The notes under the pieces: generated by a model
What the model was told of the DNA's origin: nothing
What the model saw: the letters and a program-made list of their open reading frames with translations, nothing else
Databases searched by the model: none
Shown here: positions 1,761 through 7,140 of the stretch, in pieces
Position numbering within the stretch: position 1 is the first letter of the stretch
Layout of the letters: every line of letters starts with the position of its first letter
Assembly (NCBI RefSeq): GCF_003334335.1
Contig: NZ_QOWQ01000073.1
Strand: one strand, 5' to 3'
Origin: Escherichia coli
GTDB lineage: Bacteria > Pseudomonadota > Gammaproteobacteria > Enterobacterales > Enterobacteriaceae
DNA length: 7,140 nucleotides
Position numbers and translations under genes: made by a program

Positions 1761-3251
1761 TTATAAGCCAAAGGATTGCTCATGCCATCTTATCAGTTTC
1801 TGGCTGTAGCACGCATTCAGTTCAGGCAGCGTGATATTGTTTATTTCGGAAAGCAGGACATAGGTGGTTTTTCCTTCCTGCACGACAGAGAGCCTGAGTT
1901 GAGATGCAAGAATGTTCAGCAGGACGTTCAGCTTTTTCCTGTTCCGGAACCGGCCCGGGCCACACTGGAGAATATAATTTTTCCTGACACGGGGCGGGCA
2001 TTCTCCGCGGCACTCCTCAATGAGCCAGTCGAGCAGCTCCCGGGCGTCCTGCAGCTGCAGTTCAGATTCGTCAGGTAACGCAAATAATTTTTTATATTCA
2101 TCTGTGTACCACGAACTTATTACGACAGCAGACGTCATGATATCGGCAGAGATTTTCCCTTCACCCTGACTGAAATACTGCAATAACGCAGCAATTCTCG
2201 CAATGTTTTCTGTTTTTTTTGAAACATGCCCCCGAAACTGGCTTAAGGGTCCGGAAGGAGACAAATCCTGCTCCAGAACATTATAGTGATCAATAAATAT
2301 TTTTTGCGCTTCAGGAGAAAAATGCAGACAATAACGTTCATCCTTACTGGATTTTTCAATACTGCCTCTGGCCAGTTCCATTAATCGTTCATGAAATGCC
2401 GTTAATGATCCTCCCGGGGTCACAGCTCCGTTAATAAAGCGTTTCCCCTGCGTGGTGGCAGGTTTACTGATTAGACAACGGGCAAGAAAACCACTGTCCC
2501 TGGCAACAGAACCTTTTCGCTCCATATATCGGTCAAAAAGACCGGGTTGTACCATGAGGGATAATGTCATTCTAGCATTTTCAATCATCTGTTCGGGTTC
2601 ATTCTTTCTGTCCACCGACAATACGGAGCCATCCCACATTTTGTTAATAAAAGGCAGCTCAGACAGGGTATACCCATCAAATATTATACCGGCTTCATCA
2701 GACATGATACCCACTGAACGCCACTGACCACAAAGCTGATCTTTAATTGCTGCTGTCGTGGCATCATTAAAAATGAATTTATATCTTACAGGTTTTTCCC
2801 CTCTGTTTTTCTGAAGCGCTTCCAGTTGTCTGAGCGTTTCTGACTCATCCGCGCCTTTGCGGAGTTCTTTATTCAGTTTTGACAACAATGCTTTTTTCTG
2901 CGCCTTTAAAAGCTCTTCCTTATTTTTCCATATCGTCAGTTCATTTTTGTGTCTGGAATATAACAGCATCTCCTGCTGGTACAGGGGCTCCATTAATAAT
3001 TTGTCCACTGCGGTTTTTCGTTCTCCGGACTCAGCAAGCGTCAGTAAGAAAAGAGAAACCGGCCCCCGCAGTGTATTCAGTCTGCAGACATCAATCAGAT
3101 TCTGGCAGACAAGTGAAACAGCGCCCAGGGCAGATGCTGCCACAAGCCCCAGGGGAGCCTGCGTGATTTGCTGAGCTTCAATAACGGCATCACGAATGAG
3201 TGGAGGCAGCGAGCTCAGGGGAAACTCATCAGGATACTGAAAGTATGGCAT
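1761..3251 (-). CDS. YfjI-like DUF3987-domain protein (mobile-element associated, possibly replication-related), 496 aa
   Basis: Minus-strand ORF 1761..3269. I start it at the ATG at 3251 (MPYFQYPDEF...) because a GAGGT Shine-Dalgarno sits 5 nt upstream on the minus strand. The N-terminal region (FPLSSLPPLIRDAVIEAQQITQAPLGLVAASALGAVSLVCQNLIDV) resembles DUF3987/YfjI proteins as I recall them. The many short ORFs overlapping it are antisense or alternate-frame artefacts. Confidence 0.8.
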   Translation of the reverse strand: MPYFQYPDEFPLSSLPPLIRDAVIEAQQITQAPLGLVAASALGAVSLVCQNLIDVCRLNTLRGPVSLFLLTLAESGERKTAVDKLLMEPLYQQEMLLYSRHKNELTIWKNKEELLKAQKKALLSKLNKELRKGADESETLRQLEALQKNRGEKPVRYKFIFNDATTAAIKDQLCGQWRSVGIMSDEAGIIFDGYTLSELPFINKMWDGSVLSVDRKNEPEQMIENARMTLSLMVQPGLFDRYMERKGSVARDSGFLARCLISKPATTQGKRFINGAVTPGGSLTAFHERLMELARGSIEKSSKDERYCLHFSPEAQKIFIDHYNVLEQDLSPSGPLSQFRGHVSKKTENIARIAALLQYFSQGEGKISADIMTSAVVISSWYTDEYKKLFALPDESELQLQDARELLDWLIEECRGECPPRVRKNYILQCGPGRFRNRKKLNVLLNILASQLRLSVVQEGKTTYVLLSEINNITLPELNACYSQKLIRWHEQSFGL

Positions 3252-4084
3252 AATGACCTCACAACACACAGAACATAAAGTACCGCAACTATTGCTACTA
3301 ATAGCAAAAATAGCAGCAGAATCAATACAGGATAAAAATTTCTGTCGATTTTCAGATTAAATAATAACCATTCGGTATTTTGTCGCTAAAGAATGTTAGA
3401 ATGAATCTGTGCGTCTACGGGCGCTCTCCGGAACACACATGTTGATTAATTTTCACACAACAACGTACCAGCAAAAAGCATCATCCAGGGTATTGCAGGT
3501 ACGGGTTTCCTGCCGGGAATAAACATAAACAGTTTCCCCGGAGTAACGCTTTCAGAAAACTGCCCTCCTGAAGAAGAATAAAATAAAGAAGATGACAGTT
3601 CCTGCACTGAATGCTGAGTACAATATTCTATGGACAGGATGACATTTTTATAAATAACAAAAACCATTTAATACTGATACATCAATAAAATACTTCCTCC
3701 CTGCTGACACAGATAAAATGCAACATTTTTTCTTCAAATACTTCTGTATAATCGCCAGCCAATGATGAGAATGGATTAAAATAACACTTCTTCGACAAAC
3801 ACAAAAACCAGCCTTCATTTTCACATCATCATCCAGTTTTAATTAAACCCTGACGAGCGACAGTATTTCAGTTCAGGAATTAAAAGCCAGCTATTACTCA
3901 GTAAAAACACCACCAACTAATAATATCTCAGCAGATATTTCCTGACCAGGATGACACATTTATTAAAGATTTTTAACAGGACACTTCACATTACTGAACG
4001 CTATTCCGACAGTATCACTACACAAATAAAAAAGGGAACTGGATAAATATTCATGCCGGAAGAATGGTGTAACAAAAGCATTTA

Positions 4085-4221
4085 ATCATTACGTGCGTAT
4101 TCCTCTCTATTCGATCACGGTTTGGCCAAACCGTGATCGATTCAGATGCCATTTTGCAAGTACGCATGACCCGGAAGGGAAACACTTAACAACATGGTAT
4201 CAACAGATATCATTACGTGCG
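4085..4221. repeat. 13-bp perfect direct repeat ATCATTACGTGCG (4085-4097 and 4209-4221) bracketing the 30-bp palindrome
   Basis: Read directly. Both copies are identical over 13 bp with similar T/C-rich tails (TATTCCTCTCTAT vs CACTCTTAT). They are 124 bp apart. Confidence 0.85.
4111..4140. repeat. 30-bp perfect palindrome TCGATCACGGTTTGGCCAAACCGTGATCGA with two symmetric GATC sites (candidate operator or RNA hairpin)
   Basis: The sequence equals its own reverse complement over exactly 30 bp (checked base by base); it does not extend, since 4110 and 4141 are T and T. GATC at 4113-4116 and 4135-4138 are the only GATC sites in the 3270-4540 spacer. Confidence 0.9.
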
Positions 4222-4357
4222 CACTCTTATAAAAATACACAGCAGAAGCAAGATAACTCTAAACGTAAATTTAATATCTCCCACTGACTGCCCCGACAAT
4301 ATACTGAAAAATACTCACCTCAGTAAACATAAACACACCTGATAATCAGGCTGCAAG

Positions 4358-4441
4358 ATGAATATTTTTCTCCTTTACGGAGTAATCAGCCTGCTGTTTA
4401 ACAATAACCGCGTATTTTCATGGAAGGATATCACCCAATAA
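4358..4441 (+). CDS. Candidate small ORF, 27 aa (MNIFLLYGVISLLFNNNRVFSWKDITQ); possible leader peptide or small hydrophobic protein
   Basis: ATG at 4358 to TAA at 4439-4441, verified codon by codon. Hydrophobic N-terminal half. A weak AGG lies 7 nt upstream and a 13-bp palindrome CCTGATAATCAGG (4338-4350) sits just before the start. A terminator-like hairpin follows about 85 nt downstream. The ORF is too short for statistical support. Confidence 0.15.
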   Translation: MNIFLLYGVISLLFNNNRVFSWKDITQ

Positions 4442-4527
4442 CGGATAACTCCTGCCCTCCTTCATGTTAATACGCAACATCCCCATCGATTCCAAACAAT
4501 TTCAGACAGATATTATCTCCGTGAATC

Positions 4528-4566
4528 CCCCGCCACCTTTCCGGTGTGCGGGGTTTTGTCTTTTTT
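4528..4566 (+). terminator. Intrinsic (rho-independent) terminator-like hairpin plus U-tract, immediately upstream of the GTPase start codon
   Basis: GC-rich stem 4528-4537 (CCCCGCCACC) pairing with 4543-4553 (GGTGTGCGGGG) with one bulged T and a 5-nt loop TTTCC, followed by TTTTGTCTTTTTT (4554-4566). The GTPase ATG is at 4583. Confidence 0.6.
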
Positions 4567-4582
4567 CACCGGGAATACATGT

Positions 4583-5455
4583 ATGAATCCGTCTGATGCC
4601 ATTGAGGCAATTGAAAAACCACTTTCTTCCCTGCCTTACTCGCTTTCCCGTCACATCCTGGAACATCTGCGCAAACTCACCAGTCACGAACCCGTGATTG
4701 GCATTATGGGTAAAAGCGGGGCCGGTAAATCCTCACTCTGTAATGCACTGTTTCAGGGGGAGGTCACCCCGGTCAGTGATGTTCACGCCGGCACCCGGGA
4801 AGTGCGGCGCTTCCGTCTGAGTGGCCACGGTCACAGCATGGTTATCACTGACCTGCCCGGGGTGGGCGAGAGCCGGGACAGGGATGCAGAGTATGAAGCC
4901 CTGTACCGTGACATTCTGCCTGAACTGGACCTGGTGCTGTGGCTGATTAAAGCCGATGACCGGGCCCTGTCTGTGGATGAGTATTTCTGGCGACACATCC
5001 TGCAGTGCGGACATCAGCAGGTGCTGTTTGTGGTGACACAGGCCGACAAAACGGAGCCCTGCCATGAATGGGATATGGCCGGCATTCAGCCCTCTCCCGC
5101 ACAGGCACAGAACATTCGCGAAAAAACGGAGGCGGTATTCCGTCTGTTCCGGCCTGTACATCCGGTTGTGGCCGTATCGGCCCGCACCGGCTGGGAACTG
5201 GATACGCTGGTCAGTGCGCTCATGACAGCGCTTCCCGACCATGCCGCCAGTCCCCTGATGACCCGCCTGCAGGACGAGCTGCGCACGGAATCTGTCCGCG
5301 CTCAGGCCCGTGAGCAGTTTACCGGTGCGGTGGACCGGATATTTGACACAGCGGAGAGCGTCTGTGTTGCCTCTGTTGCACGCACGGTTCTGCGTGCCGT
5401 CCGTGACACAGTGGTCTCTGTTGCCCGCGCGGTATGGAACTGGATCTTCTTCTGA
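4583..5455 (+). CDS. yeeP: YeeP/YfjP/YkfA-family GTPase of cryptic prophages/islands (ribosome-binding GTPase-like), 290 aa, apparently intact
   Basis: ORF 4544..5455. Start set at ATG 4583 (MNPSDAIEAIEKPL...) with a weak GGGAA 7 nt upstream; GTG 4544 is an alternative. P-loop GKSGAGKSS (G1), DLPGVGE (G3, DxxG) and TQADK (G4-like) are present. Its position directly upstream of the Ag43 gene matches the yeeP-flu arrangement in E. coli K-12 as I recall it. Confidence 0.85.
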   Translation: MNPSDAIEAIEKPLSSLPYSLSRHILEHLRKLTSHEPVIGIMGKSGAGKSSLCNALFQGEVTPVSDVHAGTREVRRFRLSGHGHSMVITDLPGVGESRDRDAEYEALYRDILPELDLVLWLIKADDRALSVDEYFWRHILQCGHQQVLFVVTQADKTEPCHEWDMAGIQPSPAQAQNIREKTEAVFRLFRPVHPVVAVSARTGWELDTLVSALMTALPDHAASPLMTRLQDELRTESVRAQAREQFTGAVDRIFDTAESVCVASVARTVLRAVRDTVVSVARAVWNWIFF

Positions 5456-5526
5456 ACCTGTTGTGGATGATGTCCTCCTTGCCTCTGAGTCTGCTCACAA
5501 AAGCGCTGTTTTCGTTACTGTCTCTC

Positions 5527-5555
5527 TTGTCCGTGCAATAGCTTGATAATAGAAT
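5527..5555 (+). promoter_or_regulatory. Candidate sigma70 promoter for agn43/flu (-35 TTGTCC, 17-bp spacer, -10 TAGAAT)
   Basis: TTGTCC at 5527-5532 and TAGAAT at 5550-5555, separated by 17 bp. The predicted start site is about 5562, at the first GATC, which fits the known overlap of the promoter with the OxyR/Dam site. Not experimentally positioned here. Confidence 0.45.
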
Positions 5556-5560
5556 AAAAC

Positions 5561-5596
5561 GATCGATACCTATTTTATCGATCGTTAATATCGATC
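5561..5596. promoter_or_regulatory. Ag43 phase-variation switch: three clustered Dam GATC sites (5561-5564, 5580-5583, 5593-5596) within the presumed OxyR binding region
   Basis: Sequence CGATCGATACCTATTTTATCGATCGTTAATATCGATCGTT read directly, about 190-230 bp upstream of the Ag43 start codon. Three GATC sites inside the OxyR operator are the established hallmark of the agn43 Dam/OxyR epigenetic ON/OFF switch. Confidence 0.8.
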
Positions 5597-5760
5597 GTTA
5601 TGCTAATAATAACTCCTGTTAGCAACGTGCACAGATACACACAGACATGAGATTCAGGGAACAACAGAGCCACACGTCAGAAACTTCCGTCAGCCGGACC
5701 TCCGGCACTGTAACCCTTTACCTGCCGGTATCCACATCTGTGGATACCGGCTTTTTTATT
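5562..5760 (+). ncRNA. isrC: agn43 5' leader / IsrC-like small RNA (promoter-proximal transcript ending at the leader terminator)
   Basis: Inferred: a transcript starting near 5562 from the candidate promoter would end at the strong terminator at 5724-5760, giving a product of about 200 nt. In E. coli K-12 the sRNA IsrC is annotated between yeeP and flu, as I recall. The ends are not determined from sequence. Confidence 0.4.
5724..5760 (+). terminator. Intrinsic terminator in the agn43 leader (12-bp perfect stem, 4-nt loop, T-run)
   Basis: GCCGGTATCCAC (5724-5735) pairs perfectly with GTGGATACCGGC (5740-5751), loop ATCT, followed by TTTTTTATT (5752-5760). It lies 29 nt upstream of the Ag43 ATG. 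Confidence 0.75.
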
Positions 5761-5788
5761 CACCCTCACTCTGATTAAGGAAATGCTG

Positions 5789-7140
5789 ATGAAACGACAT
5801 CTGAATACCTGCTACAGGCTGGTATGGAATCACATTACGGGCGCTTTCGTGGTTGCCTCCGAACTGGCCCGCGCACGGGGTAAACGTGGCGGTGTGGCGG
5901 TTGCACTGTCTCTTGCCGCGGTCACGTCACTCCCGGTGCTGGCTGCTGACATCGTTGTGCACCCGGGTGAAACAGTGAATGGCGGAACACTGGTAAACCA
6001 TGACAACCAGTTTGTATCCGGAACAGCTGATGGCGTGACTGTCAGTACCGGGCTTGAGCTGGGGCCGGACAGTGACGAAAACACCGGCGGGCAATGGATA
6101 AAAGCGGGTGGCACAGGCAGAAACACCACTGTCACCGCAAATGGTCGTCAGATTGTGCAGGCAGGAGGAACTGCCAGTGATACGGTTATTCGTGATGGCG
6201 GAGGGCAGAGCCTTAACGGACTGGCGGTGAACACCACGCTGGATAACAGAGGTGAGCAGTGGGTACACGGGGGAGGGAAAGCTGCCGGTACAATTATTAA
6301 CCAGGATGGTTACCAGACCATAAAACATGGCGGACTGGCAACCGGAACCATCGTCAACACCGGTGCAGAAGGTGGTCCGGAGTCTGAAAATGTGTCCAGC
6401 GGTCAGATGGTCGGAGGGACGGCTGAATCCACCACCATCAACAAAAATGGCCGGCAGGTTATCTGGTCTTCGGGGATGGCACGGGACACCCTCATTTACG
6501 CCGGTGGTGACCAGACGGTACACGGAGAGGCACATAACACCCGGCTGGAGGGGGGTAACCAGTATGTACACAACGGTGGCACGGCAACAGAGACGCTGAT
6601 AAACCGTGATGGCTGGCAGGTGATTAAGGAAGGAGGAACTGCCGCGCATACCACCATCAACCAGAAAGGAAAGCTGCAGGTGAATGCCGGCGGTAAAGCG
6701 TCTGATGTCACCCAGAACACGGGCGGTGCACTGGTTACCAGTACAGCTGCAACCGTCACCGGCACAAACCGCCTGGGAGCATTCTCCGTTGTGGCGGGTA
6801 AGGCTGATAATGTCGTACTGGAAAATGGCGGACGTCTGGATGTGCTGAGCGGACACACAGCCACTAATACCCGCGTGGATGATGGCGGAACGCTGGATGT
6901 CCGCAATGGTGGTACCGCTACCACCGTATCCATGGGGAATGGCGGGGTACTGCTGGCCGATTCCGGGGCCGCTGTCAGTGGTACCCGGAGCGACGGAACG
7001 GCATTCCGTATCGGAGGCGGTCAGGCGGATGCCCTGATGCTGGAAAAAGGCAGTTCCTTCACACTGAACGCCGGTGATACGGCCACGGATACCACGGTAA
7101 ATGGCGGACTGTTCACCGCCAGGGGCGGCACACTGGCGGG
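5789..7140 (+). CDS. flu: Antigen 43 (Ag43) self-associating autotransporter adhesin, 5' part (signal peptide plus passenger beta-helix); runs off the window end
   Basis: ATG 5789 with AAGGA (5777-5781) 7 nt upstream. Translation begins MKRHLNTCYRLVWNHITGAFVVASELARARGKRGGVAVALSLAAVTSLPVLAADIVVHPGETVNGG..., matching the Ag43 N-terminus including the extended autotransporter signal peptide. The frame is open to 7140 and shows the ~19-residue Gly/Thr/Asn-rich repeats typical of the passenger domain. Confidence 0.9.
   Translation, partial: MKRHLNTCYRLVWNHITGAFVVASELARARGKRGGVAVALSLAAVTSLPVLAADIVVHPGETVNGGTLVNHDNQFVSGTADGVTVSTGLELGPDSDENTGGQWIKAGGTGRNTTVTANGRQIVQAGGTASDTVIRDGGGQSLNGLAVNTTLDNRGEQWVHGGGKAAGTIINQDGYQTIKHGGLATGTIVNTGAEGGPESENVSSGQMVGGTAESTTINKNGRQVIWSSGMARDTLIYAGGDQTVHGEAHNTRLEGGNQYVHNGGTATETLINRDGWQVIKEGGTAAHTTINQKGKLQVNAGGKASDVTQNTGGALVTSTAATVTGTNRLGAFSVVAGKADNVVLENGGRLDVLSGHTATNTRVDDGGTLDVRNGGTATTVSMGNGGVLLADSGAAVSGTRSDGTAFRIGGGQADALMLEKGSSFTLNAGDTATDTTVNGGLFTARGGTLA
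6100..7140 (+). repeat. Degenerate ~57-bp (19-20 codon) periodic repeats encoding the Ag43 passenger beta-helix rungs
   Basis: Recurring units such as AGGTASDTVIRDGGGQSL / GGGKAAGTIINQDGYQTIK / NGGTATETLINRDGWQVIKEGGTAAHTTINQKG at roughly 19-20 residue spacing in the translation. These explain the long spurious antisense ORFs in this stretch. Confidence 0.7.

Follow-up and report, generated by a model that had tools for sequence, protein, structure and literature searches.

A probable Dam/OxyR phase-variation switch upstream of agn43 on an Escherichia coli chromosomal island

The gene setting of the locus

The window, by which we mean the whole stretch of 7,140 bp that was analysed, is chromosomal island DNA of E. 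coli, and matches the genomes of DETEC-S792, S1-KEN-03-A and others at 99.9% identity over its full length. The gene layout was taken from the RefSeq annotation of such near-identical (99.9%) genomes, the first entry below resting on DETEC-S792 and S1-KEN-03-A in particular and the last on a translation of the window itself.

1-69: last 69 bases of an IS3-family transposase gene
776-982: small helix-turn-helix gene (RefSeq)
1068-1640: hypothetical gene (RefSeq)
1761-3251, minus strand: YfjI-family gene (RefSeq)
3252-4582: AT-rich stretch of 1.3 kb without annotated genes, between the divergent YfjI-family gene and GTPase gene
4583-5455: complete YeeP-like GTPase-family gene (RefSeq)
5789-7140, plus strand: 5' part of agn43 (flu), 450 codons translated without a stop and open to the window end

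The AT-rich stretch at 3252-4582 has a GC content of 34-41%, as compared to 50-60% in its flanks, and holds two GATCs (4113 and 4135). When 3200-4620 was searched permissively against Rfam, only a sub-threshold chance match came back. One genome of this group, NMBU-W12E19, departs from the window sequence before position 75, and has IS66-family elements directly 3' of agn43 with no yeeR-irmA genes there; in UPEC, yeeR-irmA form an operon with agn43 (PMC4807369).

The frame that is open to the window end matches the NCBIfam model NF033177 ('Ag43/Cah family autotransporter adhesin') with 795 bits over profile positions 1-452 of 948, and in genomes that are 99.9% identical to the window RefSeq annotates agn43 as an intact CDS of 3123 bp. 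Directly upstream of this Ag43-family gene, in the 333-bp gap that separates it from the YeeP-like GTPase gene, sit the three closely spaced GATC sites with which this work is concerned. They had been proposed in a first-pass annotation of the DNA and are indeed present, starting at 5561, 5580 and 5593; the 38-mer quoted there, CGATCGATACCTATTTTATCGATCGTTAATATCGATCG, is found letter for letter at window positions 5560-5597. Out of 5,426 complete E. coli genomes, 1,908, K-12 among them, have a GTPase-agn43 intergenic region that matches the segment 5440-5800 (361 bp). In strains G1/2, G6/7 and G8, whose island is likewise 99.9% identical, the matched region is broken by an IS421 element, and the annotation gives the adhesin gene as 'AIDA repeat-containing protein' and not as agn43. 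The genes dam and oxyR belong to the E. coli core genome, and both lie outside the 7,140-bp window.

Promoter, GATC cluster and leader RNA

The regulatory features assigned to the gap between the GTPase gene and agn43 are as follows.

5527-5555, plus strand: sigma-70 promoter of agn43, with -35 TTGTCC (5527-5532), a 17-bp spacer and -10 TAGAAT (5550-5555)
5559-5595, no strand assigned: predicted OxyR site, the best frame of the 37-bp tetramer consensus ATAGnTnnnAnCTAT-N7-ATAGnTnnnAnCTAT
5559-5764, plus strand: agn43 leader RNA, the small RNA IsrC (Rfam RF00124, 'IS102 RNA')
5561-5564, no strand assigned: GATC-I, whose G (5561) is the inferred transcription start (+1)
5580-5583, no strand assigned: GATC-II, starting 19 bp after GATC-I as in K-12; kept in 103 of 107 surveyed loci
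5593-5596, no strand assigned: GATC-III, starting 13 bp after GATC-II as in K-12; kept in 106 of 107 surveyed loci
5724-5757, plus strand: intrinsic terminator within the leader, a GC-rich stem of 12-13 bp (5724-5751) followed by TTTTTT
5777-5781, plus strand: Shine-Dalgarno sequence AAGGA, 7 nt before the ATG, the same in 14 of 14 aligned alleles

Within 5300-5900 the site at 5527-5555 is the only promoter-like one, and both of its hexamers are as in K-12. The start predicted at 5561 falls 6 nt past the -10 hexamer, and the ATG at 5789 follows it by 228 nt. In K-12, the agn43 start is said to be the G of the upstream GATC (Wallecha, 2002), and from the same work the footprint of OxyR(C199S) reportedly extends from -16 to +42, which by homology we take to correspond to a protected region of about 5545-5602 in the window. 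In the ST131 strain EC958, the agn43 start was mapped by 5' RACE to a point 228 bp from the start codon (PMC4807369). The allele of strain 751, another ST131 strain, shows no indel relative to the window from the switch to the ATG, and the EC958 start, at 228 bp before the ATG, corresponds to 5561.

The OxyR site was located by sliding the tetramer consensus, with its half-site as quoted in PMC2909390, over both the window and K-12. The best frame spans the whole of GATC-I and GATC-II as well as the first three bases of GATC-III, with 5596 just outside, and agrees with the consensus at 14 of 20 specified positions; K-12 has the same score in the same frame, and a score of 14 is reached at only 2 of 7104 window positions. 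As the Toledano consensus is crude, an unchanged score of 14/20 does not prove an unchanged affinity for OxyR. The other match of this score (391-427) is AT-rich, holds no GATC, lies upstream of the helix-turn-helix gene and is most likely a chance match. An alternative frame shifted by 22 bp (5581), which scores 12/20 here as against 14/20 in K-12, was not taken as the site because GATC-I falls outside it.

With respect to GATC content, the window holds 15 sites, where dinucleotide-preserving shuffles hold 26.9 +/- 4.8 (and at least 15 in 199 of 200 shuffles), such that GATC is under-represented. The nearest site upstream of the cluster is at 5443, inside the GTPase gene and 118 bp from GATC-I. 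The suggestion of the first-pass annotation that the switch offers an internal reference point for GATC-based control within the island found no support: GATC is scarce elsewhere in the window, where the AT-rich chance match at 391 is the one stretch that scores like the agn43 site. A second tight trio of GATCs (1449, 1455 and 1491) was noted inside the hypothetical gene at 1068-1640, with no OxyR-like match seen there.

If 15 sites are placed uniformly in 7140 bp, three starts fall within 33 bp in 2.4% of simulations. By position alone the cluster is therefore unusual, moderately improbable but not overwhelmingly so, and the comparative evidence is the stronger. One might contend that the cluster arose by chance in an AT-rich intergenic region and carries no regulatory meaning, a contention to which a positional P of about 0.024 leaves some room. 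However, homology to a characterised regulatory region extends over about 1,900 genomes, the match to the Rfam leader family runs over the full length, and in 101 of 107 loci the three GATCs hold their register amid polymorphic surroundings. We regard a fortuitous cluster as extremely improbable, and indeed as refuted on account of these comparative data.

The leader itself is recognised by RF00124 with 255.5 bits (gathering score 46, E = 1.4e-49) over the full length of the model, 1-206, and this is the only Rfam family found in the window; the 'IS102' of the family name is an intergenic-sequence number and not an insertion sequence. Its predicted fold of -59 kcal/mol stands at z = -5.5 relative to shuffles, and 31 nt separate the end of the terminator from the start codon.

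The GATC palindromes could in principle be kept mainly for an RNA role, as arms of the 5' hairpin of IsrC, or as a SeqA-binding cluster, and not for competition between Dam and OxyR. The Rfam consensus structure does pair the arm of GATC-II with that of GATC-III, and in the predicted fold of the window allele GATC-I would pair with GATC-II in an 8-bp hairpin; SeqA, for its part, is said to bind the agn43 region (Kaminska, 2010). Yet the hairpin partner varies between alleles, and it is the GATC tetranucleotides and their spacing that are invariant whereas the stems are not. For instance, positions 5578 and 5598, which face each other in the Rfam hairpin, are U and U in the window but C and U in the alleles of EE72d and Nissle, with no compensatory change. 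As for SeqA, PMC13337833 cites Kaminska 2010 in this connection, but summarises later work to the effect that sequestration mediated by OxyR, and not by SeqA, is central to the OFF state. An RNA or SeqA role as the main reason for the palindromes is accordingly held to be very improbable, with Dam/OxyR competition remaining the preferred account of them.

Comparison with K-12 and natural variation of the switch

An alignment to the upstream region of K-12 flu had been set beforehand as a check on the annotation, and its outcome was favorable. Over the 361-bp region the window is 88.6% identical to K-12 strains, the alignment runs ungapped from the -35 hexamer to the end of the switch, and the GATCs keep the K-12 spacing (19 and 13 bp). 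The switch (5561-5602) carries five substitutions, given here as window/K-12: 5565 G/A, 5569 C/T, 5587 A/T, 5598 T/A and 5601 T/A. A further difference, TG/CA at 5544-5545, is situated in the promoter spacer. Three of the five switch substitutions fall inside the 37-bp OxyR frame, all at unspecified (N) positions, and it is for this reason that the score of 14/20 is unchanged from K-12. A disrupted OxyR half-site, which had been named as a finding that would speak against the annotation, was looked for and, by the consensus criterion, none was seen.

The likeness to K-12 agn43 extends beyond the switch: the position between a YeeP-like GTPase gene and agn43, the -35 and -10 hexamers, the GATC spacing, the OxyR frame and its score, the leader RNA family, the terminator, the ribosome binding site and the context of the start codon are all the same. 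The window differs in that its leader has small indels (a net 4 nt longer) and many substitutions, and in that its upstream GTPase gene is complete, while that of K-12 is a truncated pseudogene. The match to the known agn43 regulatory region was hence borne out, with promoter, IsrC/IS102 leader, terminator and open Ag43 frame all found. Two adjectives of the first-pass annotation call for some restraint. 'Canonical' is apt insofar as every defining element is present, but the segment 5561-5602 departs from K-12 at 5 of 42 bases and the spacer at 2 more; 'intact' holds for spacing, OxyR score and the lack of indels, and is a statement about sequence only.

The natural diversity of the switch was surveyed by aligning 13 E. 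coli alleles that span 84-98% identity, and by scanning metagenome contigs with an anchor from the -35 region, CTGTCTCTCTTGTCCGTGCAA, which presupposes no GATC. In total, 107 loci could be aligned, representing 34 distinct alleles over 110 nt; they do not count as phylogenetically independent samples. In 101 of the 107, the GATC trio is complete and in register. One GATC is lost in six loci, in which GATC-I reads GATG (L044, L085), GATC-II reads AATC (L032, L068, L092) or GATC-III reads GATT (L058). These six could be naturally biased or locked variants of the switch, to judge by their sequences, and singletons among them that come from low-coverage metagenome contigs could be assembly errors.

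Across the 107 loci, 289 minority calls fall within 5561-5602, 7 of them on the 12 GATC bases and 282 on the other 30 positions. By permutation, this polymorphism load on the GATCs has P = 0.015 against 12 random positions and P = 0.022 against three random non-overlapping 4-mers, both for loci that are not independent of one another. A Fisher test of variable versus invariant positions, GATC against other, was not significant (P = 0.16-0.22) because many of the non-GATC positions are invariant too. Eight non-GATC positions of 5561-5602 are polymorphic in at least 10 loci, and zero GATC positions are. Nucleotide diversity in the switch (pi = 0.089) exceeds that of the promoter (0.050) and of the GTPase gene (0.034) but not that of the Ag43 passenger domain (0.12-0.21). 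Judged by this comparison of alleles, it is the GATCs and the distances between them that are conserved, and not the switch segment as a whole.

The allele of the window is assembled from common bases, each of those across 5545-5602 being present in 31 or more of the 107 loci. As a combination it is rare: an identical 86-bp allele is carried by 6 of the 5,426 complete E. coli genomes, and an identical 110-nt allele by two genomes plus two contigs from metagenomes. The OxyR score is 14 in 91 of the surveyed loci, 13 in 15 and 15 in 1. All three GATCs of the window lie in an identical 11-mer, TATCGATCGTT, at 5558-5568 (inverted), 5576-5586 and 5589-5599; K-12 has three different contexts.

These observations bear upon the one alternative that would leave the homology intact and alter its meaning, namely that the window carries a homologous switch whose setting has shifted quantitatively, the flanking substitutions having changed OxyR affinity or the kinetics of Dam so as to bias the switch toward ON or OFF or to lock it. 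Were the allele shifted or locked, the word 'intact' would mislead. There are, as noted, five substitutions relative to K-12 within 42 bp, and highly polymorphic positions of the survey (5565, 5569, 5578, 5587, 5598 and 5601, of which 5569, 5587, 5598 and 5601 show three or four bases) adjoin the GATCs. The identical 11-mer at all three sites is found in only 9 of 107 loci, and both binding affinity and the number of GATCs are noted to matter for switching (PMC2909390, discussion). On the other hand, each variant base is common elsewhere, no specified OxyR position and no GATC is hit, and the spacing is unchanged. The ST131 allele of strain 751, furthermore, shares the A at 5587 and the T at 5598, and EC958, a different ST131 strain, is strongly OxyR-repressed. 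On balance we consider a shifted or locked allele improbable, and favor a switch that works as it does in K-12.

A separate matter is why the flanks should be so polymorphic in the first place. It is conceivable, although in our estimation unlikely, that selection tunes the rate of ON/OFF switching allele by allele through OxyR affinity or the flank preference of Dam; the alternative would be neutral drift, or else gene conversion among paralogous copies of agn43. If rate tuning were true, the window allele, with its three identical copies of TATCGATCGTT, would represent a distinct setting. Islands that are otherwise nearly identical were seen to differ preferentially in the switch and leader. 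S1-KEN-03-A (L016) differs from the window by 9 SNPs in 7140 bp, 4 of which are at 5569 (C>G), 5587 (A>G), 5615 and 5631, and UPEC-245U (L017) by 16 SNPs, including those at 5605 and 5631; positions 5569 and 5587 are multi-allelic in the wider sample also. This concentration of SNPs could be due to gene conversion between paralogous agn43 copies, to a mutational hot spot, or to selection on switching rate.

A scan of a one-genome-per-species collection with TATCGATCGTTNATATCGATCG and with the degenerate 38-mer ACGATCNATANCNATTTNANNGATCGTTNATATCGATC gave zero matches, which suggests that, at the stringency of the scan, the agn43 switch is not widespread beyond E. coli. The same scan is uninformative on E. 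coli itself, since no more than about 35% of its genomes carry the region and the species representative may lack it.

The proposed mechanism and its relatives

In K-12, one OxyR repressor site is overlapped by three GATCs that are substrates of Dam; once methylated, the site is closed to OxyR (ON), whereas OxyR on unmethylated DNA represses agn43 and blocks methylation (OFF), and replication opens a window in which Dam and OxyR compete (PMC3764049, PMC4872104, PMC13337833, PMC2909390). Expression of agn43 is described as being further controlled by antitermination at the IsrC leader (PMC5389530). Because every sequence element of this mechanism is present in the window, the K-12 mechanism is the best explanation for it, and we consider it highly likely that the three GATCs constitute the agn43 (flu) Dam/OxyR switch, working as in K-12 on this E. 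coli island. That the window allele binds OxyR, is sensitive to methylation and switches between ON and OFF we infer from the K-12 and UPEC literature.

As envisaged for the window, the sigma-70 promoter at 5527-5555 would drive transcription from the G of GATC-I (5561), and a single OxyR tetramer site would overlap both the agn43 start and all three GATCs. OxyR occupying the unmethylated site would block transcription and at the same time shield the GATCs from Dam, giving a heritable OFF state. Should Dam methylate the sites after replication and before OxyR rebinds, OxyR would be excluded and the promoter would fire, giving a heritable ON state. The resulting transcript would open with an IsrC leader of approximately 200 nt, and the terminator at 5724-5757 would presumably stop a part of the transcripts before they reach the coding sequence.

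A switch of this kind is already known. The window holds an ordinary natural allele of it, with the mechanism unchanged, and the result is a correct annotation and not a discovery. The annotation is nonetheless a secure one, and the Ag43 adhesin gene of the island is very probably phase-variable. Phase-variable Ag43 means that expression, aggregation and biofilm phenotypes depend on the colony that is picked (PMC3764049). A by-product of this work is a small survey of alleles, whose six GATC-loss loci could inform work on how the switching rate varies in nature.

Two other epigenetic systems make use of comparable parts. The Salmonella gtr (P22) and opvAB systems employ the same proteins, with Dam-methylated GATCs in OxyR half-sites blocking OxyR and bound OxyR blocking methylation (PMC2909390). 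The gtr arrangement comprises four GATCs, grouped as two pairs, together with three OxyR half-sites, which make up two alternative sites upstream of the promoter, and whether OxyR activates or represses depends there on the site it occupies; agn43 and the window locus have one repressor site over the start and three GATCs (PMC2909390). An architecture of the gtr/opvAB type was not found in the window, where three GATCs lie in one predicted OxyR site that overlaps +1. Switches of the pap family are likewise epigenetic ON/OFF devices, in which Dam and a DNA-binding protein compete at GATCs, but they rely on Lrp and PapI at two mutually exclusive Lrp sites with a 102-bp spacing (PMC2909390), in contrast to the 19- and 13-bp spacing and OxyR-like context of the window.

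For agn43 itself, a survey of methylome papers for mixed methylation at non-K-12 alleles turned up no allele-specific data, these papers citing the K-12 work only. Each of the two allelic groups of agn43 is reported to possess three GATCs at similar distances (PMC2808357). Repression of agn43 by OxyR has been demonstrated in the UPEC strains CFT073, 83972 and EC958, and in ST131 EC958 an oxyR mutation raises agn43 transcription 121-fold (PMC4807369). The closest relatives of the window allele belong to a clade at 95-99% identity (592 genomes) that takes in the alleles of UPEC/ST131/Nissle 1917, O104:H4 and the bovine strain EE72d. Members of this clade have a leader of equal length and show 2-4 differences from the window in the 86 bp of promoter and switch. 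The window allele combines the G at 5565 and T at 5578 of O104:H4 with the A at 5587 of EE72d and Nissle. Unlike it, the Nissle and ST131 alleles have C at 5571, and AAGAAT in place of TAGAAT as the -10 hexamer (window 5550). This form of the hexamer, in which the first T of the consensus is lost, was seen in 10 of 107 loci, among them Nissle 1917 (L005) and ST131 strain 751 (L006).
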